Of a stretch of DNA of 64,000 nt, positions 25,750 to 58,131 are shown in pieces. The stretch is taken from positions 235 through 64,234 of the forward strand of contig JAQWGN010000002.1 of assembly GCA_029238215.1 (NCBI GenBank), given 5' to 3'. The DNA comes from Flavobacteriaceae bacterium (lineage in GTDB: Bacteria > Bacteroidota > Bacteroidia > Flavobacteriales > Flavobacteriaceae). The stretch's first letter is position 1. Every line of letters begins with the position of its first letter. The notes below the pieces were generated by a model, which did no database searches, was not told the origin of the DNA, and worked only from the letters and a program-made list of their open reading frames with translations. A program made the position numbers and the translations under genes.

Positions 25750-25775
25750 AAAGGCGTCCAATTGGACGCCTTTTT
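25750..25775. repeat. Copy 1 of a 26-bp perfect repeat AAAGGCGTCCAATTGGACGCCTTTTT (the rpsT terminator)
   Basis: An identical 26-mer recurs at 26805-26830. The core GGCGTCCAATTGGACGCC is a perfect palindrome, so direct versus inverted orientation cannot be told apart. Confidence 0.9.
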
Positions 25776-25777
25776 TT
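25753..25777 (+). terminator. Rho-independent terminator after rpsT
   Basis: An 18-nt perfect hairpin GGCGTCC-AATT-GGACGCC followed by T7. Confidence 0.8.
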
Positions 25778-25891
25778 ATGGTCTTGTTTTTTTTGTTAAC
25801 TTAGTATTCAACAAACCCCAAATTTGTTCTTCTATATGAATCACCTACGGCGTATTTCCTATACCAACTACAACTACTCTTATTTGAGACG

Positions 25892-26788
25892 TTGTTCACA
25901 ATTAAAAAAATAATCTTCTTTTTTCTAGCCTTAAGTTTTCTTGATTCCTTCTGTCAGTAAAGCATTCATAACAAAAAAAGAAATACTCTTATCGAATTCT
26001 CTGAGATTACAAGCAGTTTCGATAATCTTGAAAAACGAAATGGCGAAAAAGCAGTTATTTATTTTAATGCTTCTACTCCAGGATATTTGCTTTTAATTAA
26101 AAATACGGGAAGATTTCGAAAAATCCCATCTAAGAAATTTATATGGCTTGAAGGTGTATTTAAATCATTTCGTTTCCAACATAAAGTAGAAGACTTATTT
26201 AAAAATGAAGTACTAATAGAAACAGAAAGTGGAAACTATTGGCTCCCTATACAAAATAGCTTAGAGTCCTTTTGGCATGAGGAACTCAAAATTAGTGATT
26301 ATGCGTTAATTTATATTAGAGCCTATGGTTCAACATATGAGAAAACATCTGATAAGTGGTTATTTACGATTAATTCATTCAATTCAAATTATTATGACGG
26401 ACTTTGGGAAGAAGCTTTAAATAGTTTTAATGAAAAAGACTCATTCAACGGATTAAATTGTGTCAATAAGTTAATCGAATTGGATCCAAAAGATGGTCGA
26501 AACTTTTCAATGTTAGGGTTTTATTATTATGATAAAGGGTATCCATCAAATATTGAATTATTAAAAAAAGCAGATTCACTTTACACAAAAGCAATTGAAT
26601 TATCTCCAAATTACAGTTATGTTTATTATCAAAAGGCTCTCGTAAAAATGCAACTAGCTGAATATTCTAAAGCTTGGGATAATATAGAGCTAGCAAGAAA
26701 TTTAGGGGAAGAAAATATTAAAAAAAACAAGTTAGTAGAATTGGAAAATAAACTTCCCTATGAAAAATATCTTATAATTAAAGACTAA
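25892..26788 (+). pseudogene. Signal-peptide + TPR-like protein gene interrupted by an in-frame TAA (25958-25960); alternatively a shorter CDS starting at TTG 26087
   Basis: In a single frame: TTG-FTIKKIIFFFLALSFLDSFCQ-TAA-SIHNKKRNTLIEF...GYLLLIKNTGRF..., continuing into the listed 233-aa ORF. The C-terminal half has TPR-like helices (ELDPKDGRNFSMLGFYYYDKG, AIELSPNYSYVYYQKALVKMQ). The region is visibly AT-rich. Confidence 0.45.
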
Positions 26789-26804
26789 ATATACCCCCAA
26801 CAAA

Positions 26805-26830
26805 AAAGGCGTCCAATTGGACGCCTTTTT
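26805..26830. repeat. Copy 2 of the 26-bp repeat; serves as a bidirectional terminator between the TPR gene and rho
   Basis: Same 26-mer as 25750-25775, flanked by an A-run (26802-26807) and a T-run (26826-26830). Lies 19 nt beyond the rho stop. Confidence 0.85.
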
Positions 26831-26848
26831 CAATACATATATTCAGGG

Positions 26849-28465
26849 TTATTGATTCATAGAAATCAAGAACTCTTCGTTGTTTAGTGTCTTTTTAATA
26901 CGGTCGCTCACAAACTCCATGGCTTCCACAGGGTTCATGTCGGCGAGGTATTTACGCATAATCCACATCAGCTGAATGGTTTTTTCATCCAATAAGATGT
27001 CATCACGACGTGTGCTCGAAGAAACTAGGTCAATAGCTGGGAAAATACGGCGGTTAGAAATACGACGGTCAAGTTGTAATTCCATGTTACCGGTACCTTT
27101 AAATTCCTCAAAAATAACCTCATCCATTTTAGAGCCCGTTTCGGTAAGTGCCGTAGCTATAATCGATAGCGATCCGCCATTTTCAATATTACGAGCCGCT
27201 CCAAAGAAACGTTTTGGTTTGTGTAAGGCATTGGCATCTACACCACCACTAAGTATTTTACCTGAAGCAGGCTGTACGGTGTTGTAAGCACGCGCCAAAC
27301 GCGTAATAGAGTCAAGGAGGATAACCACATCATGACCACATTCTACCAATCGCTTCGCTTTTTCAAGCACGATATTGGCCACTTTTACGTGTCGGTCTGC
27401 AGGTTCGTCAAAAGTTGAAGCAACAACTTCTCCTTTTACATTGCGTTGCATGTCGGTAACCTCTTCTGGTCGTTCATCAATTAATAAGATAATTTGATAC
27501 ACCTCAGGGTGGTTTGCTGCAATAGCGTTAGCTACGTCTTTCAACAACATTGTTTTACCAGTCTTAGGCTGCGAAACAATCATTCCACGCTGTCCTTTAC
27601 CAATAGGGCAAAATAAGTCCATCACACGAGTTGAAATGGTGCTTTCCTTACCAGCGATATTGAATTTTTCTTGTGGGAAAAGCGGTGTAAGGTGTTCAAA
27701 CGACACACGATCACGCACGATATCTGGCGATAAGCCATTAATTAAGGAAACCTTAATCAGTGGAAAATACTTTTCGCCTTCTTTTGGTGGACGAATATGT
27801 CCAAGTACCGTATCTCCAGTTTTTAGGCCAAACAAACGCACTTGCGATTGTGATACATAAATATCATCAGGAGATGTTAGGTAATTGTAATCCGAAGAGC
27901 GAAGAAAACCATAGCCTTCTTGCATCATTTCCAAGACGCCTTCACTTTCTATGATTCCATCAAACTCATAATCGGGCTGACGGTAGCGGTTTCGGCTGTC
28001 CTTGTTGTGATTGGCTTCTTTCCCCGAATTGTTGTTGCCGTTGTTTCCACCTTGATTGCGGTTGTTGTTTTTGGCGTTCGGGTTGTTGTTTGGGTTGTTG
28101 TTCTGGTGTTTTTGCTTGCGCTGTTCCGGTTTGTCACCTTCTTTATTGTCGTCTTTCCGATCGTCTTTTCTGTCATCTTTTCGTTCCGGGCGTTCCTGCT
28201 TTTTGTGCGGGGCACGTTTCGGTTTTGAAAAACCTTCTTTTTTCTCAGCATCCTGTGCTGGTTTTTCTTCAGTTTTTGCCTCAGATTTTTCTTCTGTTGG
28301 CGCTACTGAAACCTCATTGGGATCGGGTAGCGTTGACTGATGGTCAATGATTTTATAGGTGAGTTCAATTTTTTTAAGTCCTGTGGTTTTTTTTAAACCA
28401 AGGTCTTTAGCAATTTCTTGCAACTCAATAAGCTTTTTAGCTTTTAGTTCTGATAATTCAAACAT
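26849..28465 (-). CDS. rho: Transcription termination factor Rho with a long low-complexity N-terminal insertion
   Basis: From the ATG at 28465: [23 protein letters not shown] (Rho_N), then a ~120-aa K/E/D/R-rich and later N/G/Q-rich insert, then the CSD-like [15 protein letters not shown], Walker A PKTGKT and the C-terminal RecA-like core. The listed start at 28528 is an over-extension. Confidence 0.93.
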
Positions 28466-28566
28466 GTGTGTGTAAGTAACGTATGTGGATATAATTACGG
28501 CTGAAGTTGTTGCCGTTAGGACAAACATACAACTTTTTTTATTTTTGTAACGAAATTTCTCTATCC

Positions 28567-29415
28567 ATGGCTAATATAGCTGTTATTGTTCCAGTATTTA
28601 ATGAGGAAACTGTGCTAGAGAAATCAGTGCTGTCGTTACTTGCACAAACATATCCTGCAACGGAACTTATCCTAGTTGACGACGGTTCAACAGATCGTTC
28701 TGCTGAAATTGCTAACGAATTGGCATCACGTTTTCCTTCCGTGCATAGCATTCAAACGACAGCACATGCTGTTCACGAACCGGGTAAAAAGGTTGTTTAT
28801 GCATTTCAACGCGGATTTGATGCACTACGTCAATCTTGGGACGTGGTTTGCAAATTTGATGCTGATATTGTTTTTCCAGAGACCTACTTAGCCCAACTTT
28901 CGCATGTGTTTGAAACAAATAAAGCCCTAGGCATGTTTGGCGGTGTCTTAATTGTAAACAATAAAGGTACTTGGACAAAAGAGAGTATTTCATCTTCAGA
29001 ACACGTTCGGGGTCCCATAAAAGCATACAGCAAGGCATGTTTTACTGCCATTGGTGGTTTGCGTCCTGCTCTTGGATGGGATACACTCGATGAATTACTG
29101 GCGTTGTATCATGGGTTTGAAGTGGTTACCGATCAAGCATTGGAAGCAAAGCATCTTAGGCCCACAGGGCAGGAGTATAGCCACAACCTAGCCAAAGCAA
29201 AAGGCAGGGTGTTTTACCAATTGGGATATGGTCTTTTACTGGGACTGTTGGCCTGCGTAAAGTGGTCGATTACCCAAGGGGGAAATTTCATAGGAGTACT
29301 TTCAGGGTTTCTACAGCAATGGGTGCTTCAAAAAGAAAAATTAGTTACCAAAGAACAGGCTGTTTTTATTCGTAAATACCGCTGGTCACGAATCTTTGGT
29401 CGGTTTGTCTCCTAA
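28567..29415 (+). CDS. Family 2 glycosyltransferase
   Basis: [14 protein letters not shown]...[12 protein letters not shown] is a GT2 N-terminus. The C-terminal hydrophobic segments suggest a membrane-associated GT2. The ATG at 28567 is preferred. Confidence 0.75.
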
Positions 29416-29898
29416 CTCTATTACGACCAAATTTTGTGCTTTTCCCGATTGCAATTCAAATTGAATTAGCGTTTGCTTTTTATGAAATCCATGCTTTCCA
29501 GCAGCTCCGGGGTTGATGCATAGCACTTGGTTGGTAGCATCGAATGCTACACGTAGGATGTGCGAATGTCCACAGATAAAAATATCCGGTTTATACGCTG
29601 TTATTTTATCCAAAACACCCTTGGCGTATTTTTTTGGTTTCCCGCCAATATGCGTCATAAACACCCGAACCCCTTCGAGTTCAAAATACAGGTCTTCTTT
29701 AAACTGTTGACGCAGCGCATTGTTGTCAATATTACCATATACTGCTCGAAGTGGTTTTATTTTCTCTAAGGCATCTGTAACTTCAAAGGAACCAATATCA
29801 CCCGCATGCCAAACCTCATCAGCTTTTTTTGCATACGCTAGAATACGAGGATCCAAAAAACTATGCGTGTCTGAAAGTAACAATATCTTTTTCATCAT
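29386..29898 (-). CDS. YfcE/MJ0936-family metallophosphoesterase
   Basis: 170 aa with LLLSDTHS, HAGDIG, GNID(N) and GHSH motifs of calcineurin-like phosphoesterases. Confidence 0.8.
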   Translation of the reverse strand: MMKKILLLSDTHSFLDPRILAYAKKADEVWHAGDIGSFEVTDALEKIKPLRAVYGNIDNNALRQQFKEDLYFELEGVRVFMTHIGGKPKKYAKGVLDKITAYKPDIFICGHSHILRVAFDATNQVLCINPGAAGKHGFHKKQTLIQFELQSGKAQNLVVIELGDKPTKDS

Positions 29899-29918
29899 CT
29901 TTGTGCAAAATTACAGCT

Positions 29919-30677
29919 TTGCGCTTCTTTTTGGAACTTTCATATAACGGAACTTCATTTCACGGGTGGCAACGTCAGCCAAATGCCTTGTCTGTACAAG
30001 AGCTTGTTGAAGAAGCCTTGACAAAATTACTTAAAGTTAATACGACTGTTATGGGCGCAGGAAGAACCGACACGGGGGTTCATGCTGCTCAAATGTATGC
30101 CCATTTTGATGTAGCAGAAATGGCGATAGACACAGACACACTGTTGTTTAGAATGAATAGATTTTTACCCAATAGCATTGCTATTCATGCCATTCACCCA
30201 GTAAGTGATAAAGCACACGCTAGGTTTGATGCAACTTCAAGAAGCTACGAATACCATATTGTCCAACGCAAGAATCCATTTCATGCCGATTCCGCCTATT
30301 GTTTTATGGCGCCCATAGCACTAGATGCAATGAATACTGCCGCTGCATTATTGCTGAGCCACACCAATTTTAAATGTTTTTCACGATCTAGAACAGATGT
30401 AAAAACCTATGATTGTGATGTAACCATCGCCCAATGGGAAAGCGCTAATGACAGCTTAACCTTTCATATTACTGCCAATCGTTTTTTGCGCAATATGGTT
30501 CGCGCTATAGTAGGAACGCTTTTGGATGTAGGAACCGGAAAAATATCTCTTGACGAATTTCAGCAAATCCTTAACAGTAACGACCGCACTAAGGCGGGAA
30601 GTTCTGCGCCAGCACAAGGCTTGTTTTTGACGGAAGTTCGCTATCCAAACACTATCTTTGATGTCCATGGGAACTAA
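29919..30677 (+). CDS. truA: tRNA pseudouridine(38-40) synthase TruA
   Basis: From the TTG at 29919: (M)RFFLELSYNGTSFHGWQRQPN, GAGRTDTGVHA (catalytic Asp) and RFLRNMVR. The listed upstream extension overlaps the divergent gene and lacks homology. Confidence 0.85.
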   Translation: MRFFLELSYNGTSFHGWQRQPNALSVQELVEEALTKLLKVNTTVMGAGRTDTGVHAAQMYAHFDVAEMAIDTDTLLFRMNRFLPNSIAIHAIHPVSDKAHARFDATSRSYEYHIVQRKNPFHADSAYCFMAPIALDAMNTAAALLLSHTNFKCFSRSRTDVKTYDCDVTIAQWESANDSLTFHITANRFLRNMVRAIVGTLLDVGTGKISLDEFQQILNSNDRTKAGSSAPAQGLFLTEVRYPNTIFDVHGN

Positions 30678-32442
30678 CACTTCAAAACAAGTTTTGGATG
30701 TAAGCTTATTTAAAAGGCTAATGACATTTGTTGGCCCATACCGCAGCACATTTATTTTTGTTTTGCTTGCCGCAATACTTCTGTCTGGGTTTTCTACACT
30801 CAGTCCATATTTATTAAAAATAACGATTGACGATTATATTACCCTTAAAGATTACGATGGAATGTTGGTGCTTATTGCACTTATGGCTGCCACACTTGTT
30901 TTAGAAGTTATTTTTCAGTTTTTGTTCATTTATTATGCCAATTGGCTGGGGCAACATGTTATTTATGATTTGAGGAACAAATTATACGCGCATATGCTAA
31001 GCTTTAAAATGGCATATTATGATAATTCGTCTGTTGGGCGATTGGTAACTCGAGTTGTAGGGGATATTGAAACGATATCAGGAATTTTTAGTCAAGGGCT
31101 ATTTATGATTATTGCTGATTTGCTTAAGATGCTAATTGTGATGATTGTTATGTGGACTGTAAGTTGGAAATTATCGCTTATTGTTTTTTGTCTTTTACCG
31201 CTTGTACTGTTTGCTACCCGTAAATTTCAAAAAGCCATGAAGTCTGCTTTTGATGAGGTACGTACACAAGTCGCAAACCTTAATAGTTTTGTTCAGGAGC
31301 GTATTTCTGGGATGAGCATCGTACAGCTTTTTGGTCGTGAGCAAATAGAGTCACAAGTCTTTAGAAAGATTAACGACAAGCACCGCAAAGCCTGGCTGCG
31401 TACGGTTTGGTACAATTCTATATTCTTTCCCATTGCTGAACTTTCAACCTCTATAACCATAGGGTTGTTGGTGTGGTATGGCGGTCTTAATGTTATTGCT
31501 GGGACTTCTGGAATTACGTTAGGAATTATCTTTTTATTTATTCAGTTGTCTCAAATGTTGTTTAGACCACTACGACAAATTGCAGATAAGTTTAACACCT
31601 TACAAATGGGTATGGTAGCGGTACGGCGTGTAATGGCGGTGTTAGATACTGAAGAACATATCGATAACAAAGGGGTGTTGCTATCAGATAACCTTCAAGG
31701 AGCATTACGCTTTGAAGACGTTCATTTTTCATACAAGAAAAGCGAACCCGTATTGCATGGTATTTCTTTTGATATGGCACCCGGAGAAACGGTTGCTGTT
31801 GTTGGTGCTACAGGTGCGGGCAAATCTACACTGATTAATATTTTAAGTCGCTTTTATGAAATTGATAGCGGCCGTGTTTTATTAGATGGTGTTTCTATCG
31901 ATAGCTACGATAGATCATGGATGCGCAAACAAATTGGTGTAGTGCTACAAGATGTGTTTCTCTTTGCAGATTCTATTTACAACAATATTACCCTTTGGGA
32001 TACTTCCATAGACGAAGCGACTGTTATTGCTGCTGCAAAAAAAATAGGCGTTCATAAATTTATCATGAGCTTGCCAGGTGGATATCACTTTAATGTTAAA
32101 GAGCGCGGTGGAATGCTTTCGACCGGGCAACGCCAACTGATTGCTTTTTTACGCGCAGCAATTATCCAACCAAAAATTTTGGTTCTTGATGAGGCTACAT
32201 CTTCAATAGACACACATGCCGAGTTGCTAATTCAAAAGGCGACAAAAGAAATCACAAAAGGAAAGACTTCTTTAGTTATCGCACACAGATTGGCTACCAT
32301 ACAACGTGCAGATAAAATTATTGTACTCGACAAGGGAAAAATTGTAGAAGTAGGCACCCATGAGTCATTATTAAAAAATGAAGAGGGTATCTATAAAAAC
32401 CTGTACGAGGTTCAGTTTTTAGAAATGGCACAACCGGTTTAA
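30658..32442 (+). CDS. ABC transporter, fused permease/ATPase (MsbA/exporter type)
   Basis: 594 aa. A 6-TM domain is followed by Walker A GATGAGKST, signature LSTGQRQ and Walker B LVLDEATSSID. Confidence 0.85.
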   Translation: MMSMGTNTSKQVLDVSLFKRLMTFVGPYRSTFIFVLLAAILLSGFSTLSPYLLKITIDDYITLKDYDGMLVLIALMAATLVLEVIFQFLFIYYANWLGQHVIYDLRNKLYAHMLSFKMAYYDNSSVGRLVTRVVGDIETISGIFSQGLFMIIADLLKMLIVMIVMWTVSWKLSLIVFCLLPLVLFATRKFQKAMKSAFDEVRTQVANLNSFVQERISGMSIVQLFGREQIESQVFRKINDKHRKAWLRTVWYNSIFFPIAELSTSITIGLLVWYGGLNVIAGTSGITLGIIFLFIQLSQMLFRPLRQIADKFNTLQMGMVAVRRVMAVLDTEEHIDNKGVLLSDNLQGALRFEDVHFSYKKSEPVLHGISFDMAPGETVAVVGATGAGKSTLINILSRFYEIDSGRVLLDGVSIDSYDRSWMRKQIGVVLQDVFLFADSIYNNITLWDTSIDEATVIAAAKKIGVHKFIMSLPGGYHFNVKERGGMLSTGQRQLIAFLRAAIIQPKILVLDEATSSIDTHAELLIQKATKEITKGKTSLVIAHRLATIQRADKIIVLDKGKIVEVGTHESLLKNEEGIYKNLYEVQFLEMAQPV

Positions 32443-35453: not shown

Positions 35454-35455
35454 TA

Positions 35456-37930: not shown

Positions 37931-38005
37931 GGTGGTTGTAGCTCAGTTGGTTAGAGCGCTAGATTGTGGTTCTAGAGGTCGCCGGTTCGAAACCGGTCTT
38001 CCACC
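37931..38005 (+). tRNA. tRNA-His (anticodon GUG) with encoded G-1
   Basis: G-1 + GTGGTTG acceptor, D arm GCTC-AGTTGGTTA-GAGC, anticodon arm CTAGA-TTGTGGT-TCTAG, T arm GCCGG-TTCGAAA-CCGGT, 3' strand CTTCCAC + C73. As folded, positions 5-68 and 6-67 are U-U. Confidence 0.85.
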
Positions 38006-38014
38006 CATCAAAAA

Positions 38015-38039
38015 CCCTCGAGAAATCGAGGGGTTTTTT
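38015..38039 (+). terminator. Rho-independent terminator after tRNA-His
   Basis: CCCTCGA-GAAA-TCGAGGG followed by T6. Confidence 0.75.
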
Positions 38040-38049
38040 GTACAAGTAT

Positions 38050-38087
38050 TTTTATTCTTTTAACCGCAATCGATCTTCGCGGTTGGC
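38050..38087 (-). repeat. Orphan copy of the last 11 codons plus stop of the M28 peptidase gene (38 bp)
   Basis: The reverse complement reads GCC AAC CGC GAA GAT CGA TTG CGG TTA AAA GAA TAA = ANREDRLRLKE*. Matches 38811-38848 at 35 of 38 positions, and all 3 differences are synonymous. Confidence 0.9.
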
Positions 38088-38233
38088 AAAAAATCAACTA
38101 TTTAAGTTTTTTTTATAGTAAATAAATTATCATGTTTTTTTGTCGTAAAACGTGTTTTTAACACTATTTGAGAATGTTTTGTTTCCTATCTAATAAAATT
38201 AGCACTAATCTTGCCGAACTAAATCTTAATAAC

Positions 38234-38743
38234 ATGAATTACAAATTATCAATTTTATTTATTTTAATCACATCTTTAACATATGCTCAATTTGGAGTAG
38301 AAGTCGGTTACTCATTGACTGAAGTTAAAATCACTCCAGGGGATTCAACCTCAGACACCAATGGTTTCACTATAGGTGCTGTACATGACCATGAGTTATC
38401 AGAATCTCTAGACTTACAGAGTGGCTTAGGTCTTCAGTTCTTGGATAAGATCGGAGAGGACTCTAATACACTTTTAGCGTTATCAGCGGAAGTTCAATAT
38501 TATTTAGCAGGTAGAGATAGCGGTTTCTTTGCGCATGCAGGACCTCAATATACCCTAAGATTTAAGGATATAGATGGCTTGAAAAAAGGCGCTGTTAATG
38601 CAGGGTTAGGTTTAGGCTATGATTTTTCAGAGCAGATTTCTTTCAAAGTAACTTATTTAACTCAATTAAGCGATTATTCTGATATTGATGATTTTGAGAT
38701 TAAACGAAGTGGTATAAACTTAGGATTGCAATACTTCTTCTAG
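38234..38743 (+). CDS. Small outer-membrane beta-barrel protein (OmpA-TM/opacity-porin-like)
   Basis: 169 aa from the ATG at 38234. Signal peptide MNYKLSILFILITSLTYAQ, alternating aromatic/hydrophobic beta-strands, C-terminal ...LGLQYFF. Confidence 0.65.
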   Translation: MNYKLSILFILITSLTYAQFGVEVGYSLTEVKITPGDSTSDTNGFTIGAVHDHELSESLDLQSGLGLQFLDKIGEDSNTLLALSAEVQYYLAGRDSGFFAHAGPQYTLRFKDIDGLKKGAVNAGLGLGYDFSEQISFKVTYLTQLSDYSDIDDFEIKRSGINLGLQYFF

Positions 38744-38771
38744 AAAGTATTAGTTTCCAGATATAACAATT

Positions 38772-38800
38772 AAAAAAGCCTCCTTACGGAGGCTTTTTTT
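38772..38800. terminator. Bidirectional hairpin terminator
   Basis: A6-GCCTCC-TTAC-GGAGGC-T7, between the OMP gene and the convergent peptidase gene. Confidence 0.75.
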
Positions 38801-38810
38801 GTCGTTATAG

Positions 38811-38848
38811 TTTTATTCTTTTAGTCTCAATCGATCTTCGCGGTTGGC
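38811..38848 (-). repeat. Resident copy of the 38-bp repeat (the true 3' end of the M28 peptidase gene)
   Basis: Reverse complement GCC AAC CGC GAA GAT CGA TTG AGA CTA AAA GAA TAA. Continuous with the 340-aa ORF. Confidence 0.9.
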
Positions 38849-39835
38849 GATTTCCCAAGCCGTATAAAAGATAAGCCGTGTTCGTTTTTCTAAAAGTTCA
38901 TATTCAATTTTTTCAACGGTATCTGTTGGTGCATGGTAATCGGCATGCGTTCCATTAAAGTAAAAGATAACTGGAATATCACTTTTTGCAAAGTTGTAGT
39001 GATCCGAACGGTAGTAATAACGGTTTTCTATAAAACGTCCACGTTCAAAAACCTTTGTAGTAGGGTCGTTGTAACGGTAATCCAATTCCAAATTGACGTA
39101 TTGCTGGTTCATGGCTTCAGACACATCGTGCAAGTCTTGAGATAAAATATCAGAACCAATCAAATACATATAATTGGCATTGTCTTTATGCAATTCGTCT
39201 ATACGCCCTATCATATCAATATTTAGGTTAGCAACTGTGTTTTCTAGTGGATAAATAGGATTGTCGGTATAATATTTTGATCCAAGAAGCCCTTTTTCTT
39301 CTCCAGTAACATGCAAAAACAGGATAGACCTTTTGGGTTTGTGTCCTTGTTTTGCTGCCAATTGAAAAGCTTCAGCAATTTCTAACATTGCTACTGTTCC
39401 TGACCCATCATCGTCAGCGCCATTGTTTATTTGCCCATCTGCTTCAACGCCAATATGATCTAAATGTGCTGTAATAACTAAAACTTCATTTGATTTTTCA
39501 CTCCCTTCAATAAAAGCGAGTACATTTTTAGCATTGATTGTTTTATTTTCTCGGGGTGCATTTAAGTTCATGGGCATAAAGTATGCGCCATCGGGCATGC
39601 CTCCTTTTATGTCTAAGGCTTTGTATTGGTCTTTAAGGTAATTTATGGCAATGGTTTCACCTTCAGTACCGGCCTCTCTACCCATAAATTCATCTGAGGC
39701 ATAGATGTATAAATGTTCTTTTAGTTCATCGGAAGTAATGGAACTCGCATAGGTGCTTGGGTTGACCTCCATGATTCTTTGACTAGTTGCGCAAGACAAA
39801 AACAATAAGCCACCAAAAAATATGAGCTGTTTCAT
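38813..39835 (-). CDS. M28-family aminopeptidase (lipoprotein)
   Basis: 340 aa with signal LLFLSC, AHLDH, GADDDGSG, TGEEKGLLGS and ADYH metal-ligand motifs. Confidence 0.85.
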   Translation of the reverse strand: MKQLIFFGGLLFLSCATSQRIMEVNPSTYASSITSDELKEHLYIYASDEFMGREAGTEGETIAINYLKDQYKALDIKGGMPDGAYFMPMNLNAPRENKTINAKNVLAFIEGSEKSNEVLVITAHLDHIGVEADGQINNGADDDGSGTVAMLEIAEAFQLAAKQGHKPKRSILFLHVTGEEKGLLGSKYYTDNPIYPLENTVANLNIDMIGRIDELHKDNANYMYLIGSDILSQDLHDVSEAMNQQYVNLELDYRYNDPTTKVFERGRFIENRYYYRSDHYNFAKSDIPVIFYFNGTHADYHAPTDTVEKIEYELLEKRTRLIFYTAWEIANREDRLRLKE

Positions 39836-50913: not shown

Positions 50914-51524
50914 GATTTTTATTTCTTTTTATGGGAGGTACTGTCTTTGCTCAAGAGCAAAAAGGGGGTAGTGCATTGCCTATACTTAGTACGCCAAAAA
51001 GTGACTATGGACTACTACAGCCTGAGGAAAAAAATGAAGACTATTCGTTTTTAGATAGACCAAAACCAGCTCCACCGATGCTTTCGGAGGGGGAACAATT
51101 TATTGACCCTGGAAAAAAGTATTTGAAAAAACTTAAACGGGAAGGAACAGTTTCTAAAGACACCTATTTTGGTGATGTCTATTTGGGTGATATTATCACT
51201 ATATCGTCTCATGTAAAACTCCTATTACGAGACTTTGGAGCTGAAGATGGAGATCATGTTCGCGCTTTTATAAATGACAAAGAATTTATTTCGGTAATTC
51301 CTTTAAAGAATACATTCTTTGAATTACAGGTTCCACTCAAAGAAGGGTTCAATAAAATTGACTTTATGGCTCTTAACCAAGGAGCGTTGTATCCCAACAC
51401 GGCAGAATTGAGAATGTACGATGTCTATGGGAATTTATTACTAAAACATAATTGGAACTTGTCTACAGGCTCAAAGGCTACAGTTATTTTGGTTAAAGAG
51501 GGTAATGAGATTAAAACTGAATAA
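50871..51524 (+). CDS. Secreted hypothetical protein
   Basis: 217 aa with the signal-like segment KKIGFLFLFMGGTVFAQ. No family recognised. Confidence 0.5.
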   Translation: MFSSRSGYYSLKKIGFLFLFMGGTVFAQEQKGGSALPILSTPKSDYGLLQPEEKNEDYSFLDRPKPAPPMLSEGEQFIDPGKKYLKKLKREGTVSKDTYFGDVYLGDIITISSHVKLLLRDFGAEDGDHVRAFINDKEFISVIPLKNTFFELQVPLKEGFNKIDFMALNQGALYPNTAELRMYDVYGNLLLKHNWNLSTGSKATVILVKEGNEIKTE

Positions 51525-51533
51525 AGAGTAAAA

Positions 51534-52622
51534 TTAATAGTCCGCTTTTAATGCATTCAAAAACCCATAAAATGCCGGTTTTGGTTTTAGGTTTTCATCA
51601 TAAATGCAGGGCCAGTCTTTCAGTTTAAAAAATCGATTTATCCAAGTATCTCTATCGTTGAAGCCCCAAAAAGTAATACCATACTGTTGGGCTTTAGGGA
51701 CAGTTGTTTGATATATTTCAACCAACTCCGCATATTTTTTTGCTTGATCCATTCTCATGGCATCGGTTAATTCGTTATAAAGCTGAACACCTCCACCTTT
51801 GCTGTCATCGTGGGTGTTGAAAATAATATCCACTTCAGAAAGATGAATTTGCAATCCTGTGTCTGCGGCTCTTTTAAGGGTGTGAGCAATTACTTCGTTT
51901 GGGGTATCCATACGGATATGCATTTGAAAGCCAATTCCTGAGATGGGAACACCGCGTCGTTGAAAATCCTCAACCATTTTCATCATGGAATTGAACTTTA
52001 GGGTATCTCGTTCAATATTAAAATCGTTGTAAAATAAAACTGCGTCAGGGTCCGCCTCGTGTGCATAGCGGAAGGCTTTCTCGATATAGGTTTCACCCAT
52101 AGTCTTATACCAAATACTTTCAGTTCTATAACCAGCTCCTTTGGTATTGAACCCTTCGTTGACAACATCCCAGCCATGTACTTTGCCTTTGTATCGACTT
52201 ACATACTTTTGGATGTATTCCTTCATGAATTTGTCCAACCATACTGGATCCTTTTTTGCCTTTTTCTCAACCCACCATGGAGTGGCACTATGCCATATTA
52301 GTGTATGTCCAAACAGGCGTTGGTTGTTTTTTTTGGTGTAGGATACAATGCTATCTACTCTGTCCCAATAGTACACGTTGGGGCGTGGTGAAATTTGATA
52401 CATTTTCATGTCACTTCCAGCGGTATAGCTGTTAAAATGGTGTTGTTGTATCTTTTGTAATGGCGCATCATTCATAAAGGGAATAAATCGCAGCGATGAG
52501 CCAATTGGAAAATCGGATACTTTTTTTAGGGATTCGACTTCTGTTTGCTGTGTTTGCGCCGTTAAAAGGAATGTAGAGATTAAAAAGACGAATAGAACAG
52601 TTGATTTATTCATTAAATACAT
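51534..52622 (-). CDS. GH10 endo-1,4-beta-xylanase
   Basis: 362 aa with a signal peptide. GHTLIWH, WDVVNEG (acid/base Glu) and ITFWGF motifs are typical of GH10. Confidence 0.85.
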   Translation of the reverse strand: MYLMNKSTVLFVFLISTFLLTAQTQQTEVESLKKVSDFPIGSSLRFIPFMNDAPLQKIQQHHFNSYTAGSDMKMYQISPRPNVYYWDRVDSIVSYTKKNNQRLFGHTLIWHSATPWWVEKKAKKDPVWLDKFMKEYIQKYVSRYKGKVHGWDVVNEGFNTKGAGYRTESIWYKTMGETYIEKAFRYAHEADPDAVLFYNDFNIERDTLKFNSMMKMVEDFQRRGVPISGIGFQMHIRMDTPNEVIAHTLKRAADTGLQIHLSEVDIIFNTHDDSKGGGVQLYNELTDAMRMDQAKKYAELVEIYQTTVPKAQQYGITFWGFNDRDTWINRFFKLKDWPCIYDENLKPKPAFYGFLNALKADY

Positions 52623-52746
52623 TTAAATGATTTTGAAAATTATGTATTGATTAATCTCAAAAGAAAGGATTCCAGATTTTTTCATAAAGTTAGTATTTAA
52701 ATAAACATTGGCTATTATGCAGGTTCAATTTTCATACCTTTACTTT

Positions 52747-55356
52747 ATGAAAAATATTATTCTTTTGTTCCTTGGAGTACTAGTCGCTCCTTTTGTTATT
52801 CATGTTCAGGCCCAATCTAGCCATTGGGAGAGCGTGGTTCTTCCGGGTGATCAATGGGAGTATACCGTTCCTACGTCGCAATTACCAAACAACTGGTATA
52901 CGATTAGTTACAATGCATCTACTTGGGCAACTGGTCCTTCTGGAATTGGTTACGGCGATGGCGATGATGCTACAGATATCAACCAAGCTACTTCGGTGTA
53001 TATGCGTAAAACGTTTCAGATTAATGACCTTTCCCAGTTCAATAGAGTCGTTTTAGATATCGACTATGATGATGCCTACATTGCTTATGTAAATGGCGTA
53101 GAAGTTGGGCGTAATTTACTATCAGGAGATAATATTCCATACAATAGCCTTGCTGAAGGATATCATGAGGCAATGCTCTTTCAAGGGTATGCTCCAGATC
53201 GTGTTTTTATAGATAAAAACTTACTTGTAAACGGCACAAATATTATTGCGGTCCAAGTTCATAATCATACTGCAGACTCCTCAGACATGTCTGCATTACC
53301 TGTTATTTCTTTAGAAGTTTTTGGTAATACGCTAATTTACAACGGAACGCCAACTTGGTTTCAAGAACCCGACCCTGTCCCATTTCAAACAAACTTCACT
53401 TCTTCTAATTTGCCAATCGTATTGCTAGACACTGATGGAAATCAAGAGATTCCTAACGAGCCAAAAATTGGTGCACAAATGAAAATTATCAAGCGCCCAG
53501 AAAATGCACGGAATTTGGTTGCTGATTCAAACAATCCAGACTATCTAAATTTTGATGGACCAATTCAAATTGAAGTTCGCGGATCAAGTTCATCCTTATT
53601 TTCAAAAAAACAATTTGCACTTACTACTTACGATACCGCTGGGGAAAAAGATAACGTAACCCTTCTTAATTTGCCTAAAGAAAACGATTGGATTTTAAGT
53701 GGTTTGGCTTTTGATACAACATTTGTTCGTGATTATGTGAGTTATAAATTATCGAATATGATTGGTCAATACGCTTCTAGAGGGGAATATTGTGAATTGG
53801 TCTTAAACGGACAATATCAAGGCATTTATATGTTACTCGAAAAAATTAAAGCCGATGATAACCGTATTGATATAAAGAAACTGAAACCAGACGACACGTC
53901 ACTGCCTCAAATTACGGGAGGTTATGTTACCAAAGCTGATAAAATTGAGGGAGAAGAAATATTTGCATGGTCTATGGCTACACCAAATGGTTGGGGTGTT
54001 AATTTCGCTCATGAAAGCCCAAAAGCTGATGATATTACCAGTGAACAATCGAGCTATATACAAAATACTTTTGAAGCCCTAGCGGCTACAGCTTCTGAGT
54101 CAAACACCTCAATTACAAGCGGATATCCATCGGTAATAGATGTTCCGTCTTTTGTAGATTTTATGATACTAAATGAGTTTGCTTCAAACCCTGATGCCTA
54201 CCAGTTTAGCACATATTTCCATAAAGACAGAAGGGGTAAATTACGTGCAGGCCCTGTGTGGGATTTTAACTTGACGTATGGGAACGACTTGTTTTTTATG
54301 GGATTTGATAGAAGTGCATTTGATGTTTGGCAGTTTCAAGTAGGGAATAGGGGTGCAACTTTTTGGACTGACCTTTTTAACGATCCAACATTTAAGTGTT
54401 ATATGTCAAAAAGATGGGTTGCATTAACTGCTGTAAACCAGCCCTTACACCCAGATTCGATTATTGCATTAATCGATGAAACGGTTGCGTACATAGATGA
54501 AGCAGTTGCAAGACAGCAGCAGGTTTGGAATATAAATATTTCACACAACACTCGGATTAATGCGGTAAAGGACTTTGTAATTGACCGGGTTAATTGGATT
54601 TCCAACAGGCTTATTGATACCTCTTTATGTGAATCAGTTACTACGCCGCCACTTGTGATCACTAAAATTAATTATCATCCCCTTGATGAAACTATTGATG
54701 ATTCTGATGAATATGAATTTATTGGGATAACAAATAACAGTGGAGTAGAACAGGACCTTACAGGGGTATATTTTGGAGGTACTGGACTTTCATATCAGTT
54801 TCCTGCAGGATTTAAAATAGAGGCTGGTTCAGAAGTTGTTATTGCAAACAACGCAGTCAAATTTGAGTCTAGATACGGTTTCTCATCCTTTGATGAGTTT
54901 TCAAGAAATTTATCAAATAAAAGCCAAGAAATTAGTTTATTAGATGCTTTTGGAAACCTGATTGACAAGGTTGTATATGAAGATAGTGCTCCCTGGCCCG
55001 ATGCAGATGGAAGTGGTAGTTTTTTGAGACTAGCAAGCATCATGAGCGACAATGCCCTTGCTGAAAGTTGGGTTGCTAGTGTTGATTTTAATCCGTTATC
55101 CAACAAAGAAGTTTTTGAAAAGAACACCTTACTCGTTTATCCAAATCCAGTTAGCACGTATTTAAATGTAAGTATTACCAACAATGAAGTAATCAAATCT
55201 GTTGAAGTCCGAAATTTACTTGGACAAAAGGTAATGCAGCTTGCGCCAAATACCAAAAGAGTGAAAATGGATATGGCACATTTAGATAATGGAATTTACT
55301 TTATCCATATGCAGCTTAACAAGGGTACGGTTACAAAAAAAGTTCTAAAGAAATAG
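52747..55356 (+). CDS. CotH kinase-like protein with a lamin-tail (LTD) domain and a T9SS C-terminal sorting domain
   Basis: Begins at the ATG at 52747 (MKNIILLFLGVLVAPFVIHVQAQ). The CotH region includes FVRDYVSYKLSNMIGQYASRGEYCELVLNGQYQGIYMLLEKI. The LTD-like region includes ITKINYHP...EFIGITNNSG. The C-terminus LLVYPNPVSTYLNV...GIYFIHMQLNKG is T9SS type A. Confidence 0.8.
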   Translation: MKNIILLFLGVLVAPFVIHVQAQSSHWESVVLPGDQWEYTVPTSQLPNNWYTISYNASTWATGPSGIGYGDGDDATDINQATSVYMRKTFQINDLSQFNRVVLDIDYDDAYIAYVNGVEVGRNLLSGDNIPYNSLAEGYHEAMLFQGYAPDRVFIDKNLLVNGTNIIAVQVHNHTADSSDMSALPVISLEVFGNTLIYNGTPTWFQEPDPVPFQTNFTSSNLPIVLLDTDGNQEIPNEPKIGAQMKIIKRPENARNLVADSNNPDYLNFDGPIQIEVRGSSSSLFSKKQFALTTYDTAGEKDNVTLLNLPKENDWILSGLAFDTTFVRDYVSYKLSNMIGQYASRGEYCELVLNGQYQGIYMLLEKIKADDNRIDIKKLKPDDTSLPQITGGYVTKADKIEGEEIFAWSMATPNGWGVNFAHESPKADDITSEQSSYIQNTFEALAATASESNTSITSGYPSVIDVPSFVDFMILNEFASNPDAYQFSTYFHKDRRGKLRAGPVWDFNLTYGNDLFFMGFDRSAFDVWQFQVGNRGATFWTDLFNDPTFKCYMSKRWVALTAVNQPLHPDSIIALIDETVAYIDEAVARQQQVWNINISHNTRINAVKDFVIDRVNWISNRLIDTSLCESVTTPPLVITKINYHPLDETIDDSDEYEFIGITNNSGVEQDLTGVYFGGTGLSYQFPAGFKIEAGSEVVIANNAVKFESRYGFSSFDEFSRNLSNKSQEISLLDAFGNLIDKVVYEDSAPWPDADGSGSFLRLASIMSDNALAESWVASVDFNPLSNKEVFEKNTLLVYPNPVSTYLNVSITNNEVIKSVEVRNLLGQKVMQLAPNTKRVKMDMAHLDNGIYFIHMQLNKGTVTKKVLKK

Positions 55357-55360
55357 GAGA
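55309..55360 (+). repeat. Resident copy of a 52-bp perfect direct repeat (last 15 codons, stop and 4 nt of the CotH gene)
   Basis: ATGCAGCTTAACAAGGGTACGGTTACAAAAAAAGTTCTAAAGAAATAGGAGA is identical to 58080-58131. Confidence 0.95.
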
Positions 55361-55455
55361 CTACTATTTTTACTTGATAGTTTTATTGTTTTTTATACAG
55401 GGATAGTAAAGCTTTTAGAAAACCAATATCTATCTATGTCAAGTTTATATAAATC

Positions 55456-55487
55456 AAAAAGGGCTGCACATACGTGCAGCCCTTTTT
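55456..55487. terminator. Bidirectional hairpin terminator between the CotH gene and the convergent T9SS cargo gene
   Basis: A5-GGGCTGCAC-ATAC-GTGCAGCCC-T5. Confidence 0.75.
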
Positions 55488-55531
55488 GATATGAAATCAC
55501 TTAGCCTAAGTGAGTTTATGCATTTTAATGC

Positions 55532-58000
55532 TTATTGTTTAATTATTTTGGCAACTCCAATTCCAATTCCATTGGCATTTTTCAGCTGTAAAATATAAAC
55601 GTTGTTTGGTAGGCTTGATAAATCAATAACAGAAGCGGTACTGCTAATCATTACTTTTCCTGTAATATCATAAATCAAAGCTTTGGAGAAGTTTGAGTTG
55701 ATTTGGATATGCGATGATGTTGGATTGGGATAAAAATCAACATCAATCTTAAAATCTTCTAAAGAAGCTGTTTGACATACTATATTCACAACTTGAGCCC
55801 TTGATATAGAGTTGTTATTTTCGTCAGTAAACGTCCATATAACTCCAAATGTTTCTACACTTGGATCTATTGGAAAGCACTTGTCGTTTATCGCTGTTAC
55901 AGTTGAATGATAATCTGATATTCCCTCTGTAGGGATAGTAAGGCCATGTAATTGTTGACCTTCACAAATTTCATAGGTTACACTTTCTATAACATCTGGA
56001 ACTAAAGGAGGCTGCGTATCATTAACCCCATCAAATTCATAAGCGCCAATGTCTGCAGTTCCGAATCTGTAATATCCCCTTTGATCTTTATTTAATGCAT
56101 CTGAAGATCCTGCATCAATCAGAAAAGAGTCATTTTCTAATGCAACATACGGAATATTAGTTCCAAATATTTGTAGCGTTTCTTTGAGTCCAGAGTCATC
56201 TCCTGTTAATAATGTTTGTGATGTAATTGAACCACTTATTCCATCAGTATTTGATAAAAAAGAATTGATGATTGTAATATCGTTAGAAGAACCCTTAACT
56301 TCTGTAGGACTATTGTTCTCTAAAACAGAATTTTTAATCACAGCGGTTGTATAGGCAGTAATTACTGCAGGCTGATTGGTATCACTAGCAACGTTGTTTT
56401 TAAATGTTGAGCTTTCGATGTTTAGAGTTCCATCATGGGCAGGAATATAAAAAAGACCACTTTTTGTGCTATTTTCAAAAAATGTACAATTAATAATTTC
56501 TACTTCACCTGTGCCATTAGGGATAAATATTAATTCAGCATTAGTAGCTGTGTTTTGATAAAATGTGCAATTTTTAAGTGAAAATATAATATCAGACTGT
56601 TCTTTACTATTGGGAAAATAAAATAGATTATCAGAATTATTATTATTATGAAAATATGAATTTGTAATTTTCAAAGCCCCTTTACTATTAGGCTTGTAAA
56701 TAATTTCCTTAGAATTAAAATTTGTGAAAGTAAGGCCATCAATTGTTATTGATCCGTCCCTATAGCTATAAATCATTCGGTTTGAGCCAATATTAACTCC
56801 ATCAATTGTTAGCAAATTTGCGCCAGGGCCTAATATGGTGATATTTACATCATTATTATGATTTACCGCTCCGTCAACACTAATTACACCACTTAATTCT
56901 CTTAAATCTATTATTGCATTACTGCAGCCATAGTTGTTTGCTTCTGTTAATGCATTTTTAAATGAACCAGCTCCTGAAGCATTCAAATTTTCAACCAAAA
57001 AATATCCAGACGTGCTAATGCTTTTTTCATCAGTATCGTTCGTTATAGTGCTTATTGTGCTTTCAGAAACAACGATAGAAGCTAGGTCAAAGTCTATAGT
57101 GTTACCTATTGTAGCATTATTTTTTAAATCTATAGTTAGCCAATAAACATTGTCTCCCGAACTAAGCAATTCATTTAATTCAAAAGTTATTTCTGAAGAC
57201 GGATTAATTGATCCTATTAGGTTTTCGTCAATAAAATTGGCACTGCGATACAAATTAATTTTTGAGATTTCTTCACAATAGTTTTGTGAGTTGTTTAAAA
57301 AAACTAATTTTTCTAGTTCTAATGGGGAAAGACTTCCATTTGTTGTGACTGTAGCTTTTAATGCTATTTGATTGTCAAAGCCAGGGTTTAAATTACACGA
57401 TGCAGTTTGAGTTCCTGCAGACAAAAATTCCATGTCTGATTCAGCATATATTCTCAATTCATCAATGCCAATACCCAGATCCCCAGACTCTGGTAAATCA
57501 CAATTTCCAACAAAATCAATCTGAACGTCATTCAAATTAGAAAAATCTGAAAGATCAATTGTATTTTTCTTCCATTCAGATGAGTTTGTAGTTATAGTAT
57601 GCACCAACAAACCATTAACATAAACTGCCAGCGTTTCCAGACCATCTGGATGAATGTTGTAAAAAGACAGGTATGGATCTTGCGTAGAAGAAAGATCAAT
57701 GCCCTTTAAAGTCAATTTTACGTCAATAAAAAAATCATATCCATCCATCCCAGAATTTAAATATGCAAATCCATTTCCATTATATGGGGGAAAGCCATCC
57801 CATTGAAAAGACATATTTTGTCTAATGGTTTCCTCTGAATTGTGGTACCAGCGTAATAAGCCATTACGAGCATTCCCATCTTCAGCTATTGGGGTTTCTA
57901 TTGTAAATGCAATAGATTCAGTTAGAGTGTTTAGTGTATCGAAATTTTCAGTCTGTGCAAATATTACAGTTGAAAATAAAAGGATTATTGATTTTTTCAT
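55532..58000 (-). CDS. T9SS-secreted protein with a right-handed beta-helix / choice-of-anchor-Q-like region
   Basis: 822 aa with signal MKKSIILLFSTVIFAQ. The central part has repeated N.T/F.NN beta-helix turns and DQRGYYRFGTADIGAYEF. The C-terminus DFYPNPTSSHIQIN...NVYILQLKN is a T9SS sorting domain. Confidence 0.7.
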   Translation of the reverse strand: MKKSIILLFSTVIFAQTENFDTLNTLTESIAFTIETPIAEDGNARNGLLRWYHNSEETIRQNMSFQWDGFPPYNGNGFAYLNSGMDGYDFFIDVKLTLKGIDLSSTQDPYLSFYNIHPDGLETLAVYVNGLLVHTITTNSSEWKKNTIDLSDFSNLNDVQIDFVGNCDLPESGDLGIGIDELRIYAESDMEFLSAGTQTASCNLNPGFDNQIALKATVTTNGSLSPLELEKLVFLNNSQNYCEEISKINLYRSANFIDENLIGSINPSSEITFELNELLSSGDNVYWLTIDLKNNATIGNTIDFDLASIVVSESTISTITNDTDEKSISTSGYFLVENLNASGAGSFKNALTEANNYGCSNAIIDLRELSGVISVDGAVNHNNDVNITILGPGANLLTIDGVNIGSNRMIYSYRDGSITIDGLTFTNFNSKEIIYKPNSKGALKITNSYFHNNNNSDNLFYFPNSKEQSDIIFSLKNCTFYQNTATNAELIFIPNGTGEVEIINCTFFENSTKSGLFYIPAHDGTLNIESSTFKNNVASDTNQPAVITAYTTAVIKNSVLENNSPTEVKGSSNDITIINSFLSNTDGISGSITSQTLLTGDDSGLKETLQIFGTNIPYVALENDSFLIDAGSSDALNKDQRGYYRFGTADIGAYEFDGVNDTQPPLVPDVIESVTYEICEGQQLHGLTIPTEGISDYHSTVTAINDKCFPIDPSVETFGVIWTFTDENNNSISRAQVVNIVCQTASLEDFKIDVDFYPNPTSSHIQINSNFSKALIYDITGKVMISSTASVIDLSSLPNNVYILQLKNANGIGIGVAKIIKQ

Positions 58001-58079
58001 GGTTCAAATTTAACTAATTTTTAATGGCTCCCTTGATTTCTACAACAATGTTTAGTTTTATTTCAGTATTGTTTAGGTA

Positions 58080-58131
58080 ATGCAGCTTAACAAGGGTACG
58101 GTTACAAAAAAAGTTCTAAAGAAATAGGAGA
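58080..58131 (+). repeat. Orphan copy of the 52-bp repeat (displaced CotH 3' end), 151 nt upstream of the sulfatase gene
   Basis: Perfect match to 55309-55360. An in-frame TAG at 58074-58076 just upstream shows it is not part of a longer ORF. Confidence 0.95.

Follow-up and report, generated by a model that had tools for sequence, protein, structure and literature searches.

Three single genes between copies of their neighbours' ends

What kind of event leaves a single gene standing between two copies of its neighbour's 3' end, with no integrase beside it? The question is raised by a 64-kb stretch of DNA from an uncultured marine member of the Flavobacteriaceae (64,000 nt of contig JAQWGN010000002.1; hereafter the window), whose closest species representatives are metagenome-assembled genomes sharing 82-85% amino-acid identity on the neighbouring ABC transporter. 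An earlier note on this sequence had claimed three repeat pairs next to rho, an M28 peptidase gene and a CotH-family gene, and a direct read bore out all three: the R1 pair at 25750-25775 and 26805-26830 (26/26 identical), the R2 pair with a 38-nt core at 38050-38087 and 38811-38848 (92% identity) that extends to 60 nt at 82% (38028-38087 and 38789-38848), and the R3 pair at 55309-55360 and 58080-58131 (52/52 identical). These pairs are the sole long short-range direct repeats within the window, and by chance 64 kb would be expected to contain 5e-7 exact repeats of 26 nt and 1e-22 of 52 nt. The G+C (GC) content of inserts 1, 2 and 3 is 0.289, 0.321 and 0.323, respectively, against 0.380 for the window, and each value falls within the lowest 1.5-8% of equal-sized windows. 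The observed pattern is a real, recurrent, integrase-free gain of genes with target duplication at compact 3'-3' junctions, and the three loci look like recombination scars of gene gain, not like a new mobile element.

Domain matches confirmed the gene identities proposed earlier, namely rho, the M28 peptidase, CotH and three cargo genes for a TPR-like protein, an outer-membrane protein (OMP) and a protein of the type IX secretion system (T9SS). At locus 1, the left resident is rpsT (25479-25730, plus strand), which encodes ribosomal protein S20 and is called as an 83-aa Ribosomal_S20p gene in identical contigs. The first copy of R1 (25750-25775), 20 nt 3' of rpsT, is a perfect palindromic intrinsic terminator, AAAGGCGTCCAATTGGACGCCTTTTT, that serves this gene, and the orthologous hairpin is present in single copy at the empty site of a relative (L012; related loci are designated by L numbers). 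It had been described as an orphan repeat, but it is the working rpsT terminator directly after the gene. The perfect palindrome leaves no means of telling whether this pair is direct or inverted. Insert 1 (25776-26804, plus strand; 1029 nt) is about one integron-cassette unit long and is absent from L010 and L012. It ends at the second copy of R1 (26805-26830), the same hairpin, which acts as a bidirectional terminator for the cargo and for the convergent resident rho (26849-28528, minus strand; Rho_RNA_bind, Rho_N and ATP-synt_ab domains). The reading of this cargo as a gene for an exported protein did not hold. Its homologues are ~295 aa long and have a signal peptide, whereas the window copy has lost its start codon and is interrupted by an in-frame TAA behind the codons of the signal peptide; a three-frame translation against the 295-aa homologues shows a pseudogene (25903-26788, plus strand; PF13431, TPR_17) with a residual open reading frame (ORF) of 233 aa lacking the signal peptide (26087-26788). 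No significant homology was found between the upstream regions of the window cassette and that of L011, a relative with other cargo at this junction.

Locus 2 lies between tRNA-His (37932-38006, plus strand; ARAGORN) and the convergent M28 peptidase gene (38813-39835, minus strand; PF04389). The native tRNA-His terminator hairpin T1, CCCTCGAGAAATCGAGGGG (38015-38033, plus strand), is conserved after tRNA-His in L009-L016. It is overlapped by R2' (38028-38087, minus strand), the displaced native copy, which comprises the T-run, the spacer and the last 12 M28 codons (coding stub 38052-38087) and matches the empty-site sequence of L010 and L014. Insert 2 (38088-38788, plus strand; 701 nt), absent from both of these relatives, has its own terminator hairpin T2 (38778-38793), unique to the window lineage, and encodes an OMP beta-barrel (38235-38743, plus strand; PF13505; mechanical ORF start 38168) with the signal peptide MNYKLSILFILITSLTYAQ; only 3 homologues were found among 5.8 billion proteins. 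R2 (38789-38848, minus strand) is the functional copy and overlaps the 3' end of the M28 gene.

At locus 3, the resident is a gene for a CotH-family T9SS-secreted protein (52708-55356, plus strand; CotH, LTD and Por_Secre_tail domains), and R3 (55309-55360, plus strand) comprises its last 15 codons, the stop codon and 4 nt. Insert 3 (55361-58074, minus strand; ~2.7 kb), with a bidirectional terminator at 55453-55490, encodes an 822-aa T9SS cargo (55532-58000, minus strand; Por_Secre_tail, BNR_assoc_N) with the signal peptide MKKSIILLFSTVIFAQ and the motif TAAATTTG 5' of the ATG; a Bacteroidetes-type TAnnTTTG promoter motif was seen upstream of this cargo only. Homologues of the cargo occur elsewhere in unrelated contexts. 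R3' (58075-58131, plus strand) is a dead stub of the CotH 3' end, AGGTA followed by the 52 nt, and a sulfatase gene (58283-59674, plus strand; PF00884) is the native downstream neighbour. Exact-protein look-ups of CotH and the sulfatase returned no record, probably owing to start-codon or strain differences.

As claimed before, the three loci have neither inverted repeats nor a shared core motif. No terminal inverted repeats were found at the ends of the three cassettes beyond the palindromic terminator, and no core motif is common to the three sites. With the relatives included, duplication lengths range from 26 to 94 nt, and up to 132 nt by inference; no fixed target-site duplication length of the transposon, insertion sequence (IS) or miniature inverted-repeat transposable element (MITE) type is apparent.

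The duplications are real and specific to their loci

Both copies of R1 and of R2 were recovered in contigs of several independent samples and assemblers. A sister strain (L091/L092, 98.7% nucleotide identity) carries both R3 and R3', and a sister lineage (L094, 92.5% identity in the M28 gene) carries the OMP cassette together with the stub. The duplications therefore stand as real rather than as products of assembly, since they recur across samples, assemblers and diverged sister lineages. The R1 hairpin, T1, T2 and R3 are confined to their own loci throughout the window and ~1.5 Mb of related loci, which supports the earlier view of them as locus-specific and derived from their targets and led us to reject a dispersed family of repetitive extragenic palindromic (REP) or terminator elements. 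A truly dispersed family looks different: in L084 (Dokdonia ponticola) the REP- or terminator-like palindromic repeat TACGCTTTCGCGAAAGCGTA occurs at positions 2127, 3108, 9147, 16563 and 19464. We accordingly regard as practically negligible an explanation by artefact or coincidence, that is, by strain assembly chimeras or by dispersed terminator or REP members that flank genes by chance. The lengths 26 and 52 are plausible k-mer sizes minus one, and R1 is a terminator; however, different samples and assemblers gave identical structures, the sister lineages show these structures with diverged stubs, and the repeat sequences are absent elsewhere in the window and in the 1.5 Mb of related loci.

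Related genomes show empty sites and other cargo at the same junctions

A genome-collection scan placed between loci 1 and 2 gave 80 syntenic loci. The rpsT/rho junction is empty in L010 and L012, where the two genes lie ~75-100 nt apart with one bidirectional hairpin, which in L012 (GGCGTCCATTTGGACGCC) differs from R1 by one base. In L011 the same junction holds a DXD glycosyltransferase gene between two copies of the hairpin (34 nt, 91%). The tRNA-His/M28 junction is likewise empty in L010 and L014, where tRNA-His is followed by T1, ~20 nt and the M28 stop codon, whereas L009 has two successive cassettes there. One of them consists of an OMP gene between two T1 copies (28 nt, 89%), and in the other a leucine-rich repeat (LRR) lipoprotein gene has a 41-nt M28 stub on one side and the real M28 end on the other (90%). 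Each M28 copy in L009 differs from the single L010 copy at 2/41 positions, and the stub carries substitutions specific to its own clade. The insertion polymorphism predicted for these hotspots was thus found at rpsT/rho and at tRNA-His/M28, in the form of both empty sites and alternative cargo. Nucleotide identities separate a clade of the window and L094 from the clade ((L009, L010), L014), ~75% apart, and L011 groups with L010, not with the window. Since both L011 and L009 are closer to the empty L010 than to the window, their duplications and those of the window arose independently of each other.

Further relatives broaden the picture. In L016 (18393-20854), 2.3 kb with one 127-aa ORF and two ORFs with signal peptides separate a complete tRNA-His from a copy of the tRNA 3' part; the repeat, of 94 nt and 99% identical, comprises the tRNA-His 3' part (~62-64 nt) and the terminator, and no integrase was found between its copies. 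In L019 a 154-aa ORF is flanked by a stub on one side and by a convergent gene's 3' end on the other, the stub ending in FWDL* and the functional copy in FWF*. L013, L015 and L047 have cargo next to M28 with no detectable stub. The uniform layout claimed before, with cargo convergent to the resident gene, holds for the three loci of the window and is broken by L016. Cargo families are rare and patchily distributed, and no cargo was found on viral contigs. For locus 3 there was no informative empty site, as a metagenome scan with CotH gave two short loci only.

Three relatives have their own rpsT/rho terminator duplicated. In L024 (6020-6182) and L065 (4797-4946) the copies lie ~125-130 nt apart and enclose ~100 nt, and in L088 (2126-3043) they lie ~880 nt apart and enclose ~860 nt with an 80-aa ORF; these could be pre-insertion intermediates or remnants after cargo loss. 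In L013 (9505-9957), a 54-nt direct repeat (74%) brackets a 68-aa ORF between tRNA-His and M28, which may be an older nested event.

To count such structures, we surveyed 1.47 Mb in 84 loci for pairs of short repeats at a spacing of 150-6000 nt, one member of which lies at a long-ORF 3' end and the other between genes; L053 (100-7100) was excluded, where long tandem arrays of 270-340-nt coding repeats in a giant repetitive surface-protein gene dominated the counts. The survey yielded 5 direct and 2 inverted pairs, and both inverted pairs are palindromic hairpins that also score as direct, so orientation is non-random. Outside the window the density is about one per 150-250 kb. The expectation of many more cases genome-wide was not confirmed: related sequence of 1.41 Mb gave ~6-9 further cases, and the same two hotspots account for several of these.

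The copies were nearly identical at origin and the stubs decay

At locus 2, the final 12 codons translate as ANREDRLRLKE* in both the M28 stub and the functional copy. When changes were polarised with L094, whose stub ends in ...GGCAATT, the ancestral R2' stub reached 40 nt into M28, and stub and functional copy were nearly identical at origin over the T-run, the spacer and these 40 nt (~65 nt in all), with the reconstructed R2 and R2' ancestors differing at 1/40 positions; T1 and T2 were already different at that time. The functional copy then underwent A>G, shared with L094, and afterwards CGG>AGA in the window, all synonymous, while the stub kept the ancestral state in the window and took up 6/40 changes in L094, some of them non-synonymous. 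The synonymous-only divergence of R2 is therefore due to selection on the working copy and arose in place after the duplication. It had been taken to indicate that incoming DNA brought its own copy of the 3' end, an argument that fails on the near-identity of the copies at origin.

At locus 3, the AGGTA at 58075-58079, left of the 52-nt repeat, matches CotH 55229-55233, and together with the next 9 nt it matches 55229-55242. Comparison of these sequences suggests that R3' was probably a 132-nt stub that lost 75 nt between two ATGCAGCTT repeats. In the sister strain L091, R3 has three amino-acid-changing substitutions and R3' a frameshifting extra A. Non-coding stubs thus erode via substitutions, frameshift and internal deletion. 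The two ATGCAGCTT repeats in the T9SS tail of CotH itself (55229-55242 and 55304-55317) lie 75 nt apart and in frame (KVMQL / HMQL), a ready substrate for in-frame deletion in the sorting domain. In L093 (3615-6500), a fragment of a helix-turn-helix (HTH) regulator gene (nt 3649-3678 and 3765-3822) is repeated downstream of the adjacent TonB-dependent receptor gene, and this copy misses 86 nt between two 12-nt AAAATATTGCAT repeats, the same kind of stub trimming as inferred for R3'.

Cargo 1 is a relic of an integron cassette

Three other Bacteroidota genomes hold the TPR family of cargo 1 as an integron cassette flanked by attC, namely Muriicola sp. SD30 (L102, JBGEWB010000006.1), the metagenomic organism of L096-L101, and L110, which carries the closest homologue. 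In L102 (1-6078) it is one cassette of an array with at least 10 attC sites, laid out as xxxxAAC-AACGGCTATAAT...ATCATAGCC-AAGACC-GTTxxxx, and each R' tail in it is reverse-complementary to the R'' of the cassette that follows. The TPR homologues of L102, L096 and L110 have a perfect G|TT boundary with an R' tail complementary to their own R'', and the cassette units measure 1041 nt (L102) and 1046 nt (L096) against 1029 nt for insert 1. The window keeps a G|TTGT cassette boundary, GAGACG|TTGTTCACAATT (25886-25903, plus strand), a relic of the 5' boundary (attC L'/R' remnant) that can be aligned with the ...GACCG|TTGTGTTTAATT found 5' of the TPR cassettes of L096, L102 and L110, and a decayed R'' box 3' of the TPR stop codon. 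In the window GTTGTTC and ATATACC/CCCCAAC show decay, and the first 116 nt of insert 1 come before G|TT. Judged by these comparisons, cargo 1 is from the integron cassette pool. Insert 1 appears to have been opened beside the R'' box, not at the canonical G|TT. In L096-L101, an IS3-family transposase gene lies immediately 3' of the attC of the TPR cassette.

The claim that the loci lack attC-like structures stands in so far as no intact attC was found in the cassettes, and has to be amended for cassette 1, which retains attC boundary remnants (decayed R' and R'' only). No Muriicola-type attC was found in the window, and no attC-like sites were found near cassettes 2 and 3. An ad hoc scan of the window for attC architecture did no better than shuffles, with a weak detector that recovered about half of the known L102 attC sites. 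As an attC interior, the 116 nt 5' of the TPR cassette boundary gave no significant match, and the known attC interiors of the TPR family barely align with one another. The TATAAC...GTTATA boxes flanking T2 were considered as attC-like and rejected, as they are not conserved in the sister L094.

A proposed homology-anchored insertion and its alternatives

From the insertion polymorphism, the target-derived repeats, their independent recurrence and the decay of the stubs, we infer the mechanism and the nature of the donor as follows. We put about even trust in a homology-anchored, recombinase-independent insertion at compact 3'-3' junctions, by Campbell-type single crossover or by homology-facilitated illegitimate recombination (HFIR). 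Incoming DNA would carry the cargo and, next to it, a short stretch copying the 3' end or the terminator of the resident gene, presumably because it came from a relative with the cargo already at that junction, and this short shared end would be the sole anchor for integration. The fragment might be circularised and enter by a single (Campbell-type) crossover, or homologous recombination at one end might be combined with an illegitimate join at the other (HFIR); neither would require a dedicated recombinase. The overlapped target, 26 to ~130 nt at origin, would end up flanking the cargo on both sides, with one copy preserving the resident gene or terminator and the other reused as a second terminator (R1) or left as an eroding dead stub (R2', R3'). 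That non-disruptive events alone are seen would follow from selection, which keeps those events that preserve the neighbour's end.

This insertion model is supported by the empty sites, which hold exactly one repeat copy (rpsT-hairpin-rho in L010 and L012, tRNA-His-T1-spacer-M28 in L010 and L014), and by the alternative cargo at both junctions, which is bracketed by similar duplications (L011, L009). The outer repeat boundaries lie at stop +1 (L009), stop +4 (R3) and the terminator end (L016), and such boundaries at the end of a conserved function are expected if donor-recipient homology stops there. Cargo next to M28 without a stub, as in L013, L015 and L047, could represent a donor-like arrangement. 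Also in favour are the independence of the events by phylogeny, the divergent C-terminus encoded by the L019 stub, the locus-specific repeats with no inverted repeats, shared motif or recombinase found, and the low GC of all three inserts with their rare and patchy cargo families. In E. coli (lacZ), single crossovers of circles with a partial gene end produced duplications of 109-950 bp and were commoner than HFIR (PMC3240628); the inferred original repeat lengths of 65-132 nt (the R2 ancestor, the 94 nt of L016 and R3 before its deletion) overlap the low end of this range. The Campbell-type insertion favoured in the earlier note thereby gains an experimental precedent (PMC3240628), and direct orientation is dominant as well; its suggested catalysis in trans by one site-specific recombinase is unlikely, because the three sites share no core and repeat positions differ among lineages at tRNA-His/M28.

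Several observations weigh against homology-anchored insertion. The ancestral copies are near-identical (2/41 in L009, 1/40 for R2/R2', R3 = R3'), which implies a very close donor, and with such a donor a scarless double crossover should be much easier. Repeats that consist of the hairpin only (26-34 nt) are at or below the minimal length for RecA-dependent recombination. Two independent M28 stubs both end at nt 37-40 from the stop, which random fragment ends would not predict; we roughly estimate the chance of this at 5-15%. A donor arrangement was found neither for the TPR gene (cargo abutting the orthologous gene) nor for cargo 3, the homologues of which adjoin unrelated genes. As a one-unit integron cassette, cargo 1 has no obvious reason to carry a rho terminator, and a decayed rho stub beside the first hairpin copy was not significant (p = 0.4-0.6). 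The near-identical copies, the short hairpin repeats and the shared M28 stub end keep alive two other explanations, duplication in place and recombination in trans.

The former supposes that foreign DNA without homology to the site was joined illegitimately at two staggered or overlapping positions, copying 26-130 nt on both sides. We consider it unlikely, though a serious contender, and the same applies to the setting that we would envisage for it, such as a break or stalled fork at a terminator or convergent gene end, with selection keeping duplications over deletions. It would account for ancestral copies nearly identical to the resident's own sequence and for repeat positions that vary widely over the ~200-nt tRNA-His-M28 interval among lineages, from the tRNA 3' part with terminator (L016) and the terminator only (L009) to the spacer with 40 nt of M28 (window). 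Cargo 1, as a one-unit integron relic, would share no homology with rpsT or rho, and there is a possible microhomology of 3-5 nt (AAGGC/ACGGC) at its right junction. The terminator duplicates of L024 and L065, with merely ~100 nt between them, fit as well. However, duplication in place does not predict the sharp outer boundaries (stop +1 to +4, terminator ends) or the difference between the L019 stub and functional copy at the extreme C-terminus, and we know of no bacterial pathway that gives variable-length target duplications of tens to more than 100 nt.

Site-specific integration classically leaves direct repeats that span the 3' end of its target gene, and R2, R3 and the stubs of L009, L016 and L019 are flanking direct repeats of just this derivation. 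The loci might on that account be integrase-less remnants (cis-mobilizable elements, CIMEs, or decayed tycheposon-like elements) with attL and attR, recombined in trans, the element supplying a replacement 3' end, which we hold to be rather improbable. The L016 locus, with its 94-nt repeat of tRNA-His 3' part and terminator around 2.3 kb of cargo and no integrase, is what such an origin would leave, and partial tRNAs with degenerate elements of this kind are known in marine bacteria (bioRxiv 10.1101/2020.12.28.424599). The two independent M28 stubs also have their inner boundary in common, at nt 37-40, but not their outer one; other events at the tRNA-His/M28 hotspot use the tRNA or the terminator instead of the M28 end. 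Against this, the three targets have no common core and would require three recombinases, the inserts are single genes of 0.7-2.7 kb, repeat positions at tRNA-His/M28 vary by lineage, the copies were identical to host sequence at origin, and the original 132 nt of R3 would be unusually long for an att core. In agreement with the earlier note, no recombinase gene was found inside any cassette, and no recombinase domain was detected in 20 window ORFs scanned (the other ~40 ORFs were not scanned). A single trans-acting site-specific recombinase for all three loci, as considered before, is thus unlikely. Improbable, too, is a hitherto unrecognised trans-acting system of the Flavobacteriaceae that inserts single-gene cassettes at 3' ends or terminator hairpins and regenerates the interrupted end. 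Its enzyme might be an integron-type or structure-specific recombinase with attachment at terminator hairpins or at fixed near-stop positions, and the identical M28 stub boundary in two cases, the whole-hairpin duplications and the one-unit cassette between rho terminators would be its traces. Very unlikely, finally, is that an integron integrase excised cassettes as circles and inserted them at secondary sites such as terminator hairpins. This idea draws on the three other Bacteroidota genomes in which the TPR cargo family is a genuine attC-flanked cassette, in one case within a Flavobacteriaceae array of 10 or more attC sites, on the G|TTGT boundary and decayed R'' box, and on an insert one cassette unit long (1029 against 1041-1046 nt). 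However, 116 nt of the insert separate the canonical G|TT from the resident DNA; no intact attC was found; cassettes 2 and 3 showed no attC features in the searches made; and no IntI was present among the 20 ORFs scanned. Moreover, insertion by an integron integrase is not known to duplicate the target.

Left edge and other features of the window

The earlier note had pointed to a recombinase-like ORF at the left edge of the window (frame +2, 2-367). This ORF has no match in Pfam, NCBIfam, PDB, phages or plasmids and was rejected as a recombinase, having no homologue in any library tried; it overlaps a tmRNA gene (291-689, minus strand) with the tag GENNYALAA. tmRNA genes are common integration sites, and an element may lie just left of the window, by the tmRNA gene. 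The region 3478-9900 is a low-GC (0.30-0.37) polysaccharide-biosynthesis cluster (DegT aminotransferase, flippase-like Polysacc_synt_3, FdtA, GT2 and GT4 glycosyltransferases), a typical replaceable surface-glycan island.

Implications and comparison with known systems

Many hotspots of horizontal gene gain have no mobility genes, and the usual account of them is a traceless double crossover in the flanking core genes. The duplicated gene end or terminator is a trace. From it one learns that part of the gains came about by one-sided or overlapping events, which happened repeatedly and independently at the same compact 3'-3' junctions and left behind a stub that decayed afterwards. As a simple signature it can be searched for in uncultured marine Bacteroidota, in order to date and count gene gains that involved no integrase, and to examine whether genes of surface and secreted proteins enter preferentially at the terminators between convergent genes. 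A relic integron cassette outside any array is, in addition, a link between cassette pools and ordinary chromosomal hotspots.

Among the systems that resemble these loci, the minimal mobile elements of Neisseria and the integrase-free hotspots of horizontal transfer between core genes have alternative whole-gene cargo between the same conserved flanks by lineage and no mobility genes. They are exchanged by double crossover in both flanks without duplication, whereas here the target duplication marks a one-sided event. Integron gene cassettes and clusters of attC sites lacking integron-integrases (CALIN arrays) are likewise single-gene units, mostly for exported or unknown proteins, and the cargo-1 family is a real cassette elsewhere; the loci described here differ in that no intact attC or integrase gene was found and in that the repeats are copies of the target, not attC. 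CIMEs and degenerate tycheposon or tRNA-island remnants (bioRxiv 10.1101/2020.12.28.424599) share with them the direct repeats of the target 3' end, cargo without an integrase, tRNA-proximal hotspots and successive insertions. In the present case, however, no cognate integrase is identifiable, the target sequences are unrelated, repeat positions vary, the inserts are single genes, and a protein-gene end or a terminator takes the place of a tRNA gene in two of the three targets.

For type VI secretion system (T6SS) and rhs loci, a displacement of 3' ends resembling HFIR has been proposed (PMC5361080). In HFIR and in the 'C-terminal displacement' arrays of rhs, contact-dependent inhibition (CDI) and T6SS effectors, as here, one conserved flank acts as the anchor, an older 3' fragment is orphaned downstream and no integrase is involved (PMC5361080). 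The variable 3' part of the same toxin gene is replaced there and immunity genes are left behind, whereas here unrelated single genes come to lie next to housekeeping genes, and what is displaced is either a non-coding stub of 36-57 nt or a terminator that is used again. Experimental HFIR usually deletes recipient DNA, unlike the present loci (PMC3240628). The Campbell-type single crossover studied at E. coli lacZ (PMC3240628) similarly leaves cargo flanked by a direct duplication of a gene end with no site-specific recombinase, although it was obtained with engineered plasmids, while the events described here are natural, with repeats of 26-60 nt now and of 65-132 nt by inference originally. 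Mechanistically, then, the nearest relatives of the three loci are Campbell and HFIR scars and C-terminal displacement, here acting on the ends of housekeeping genes and on terminators.

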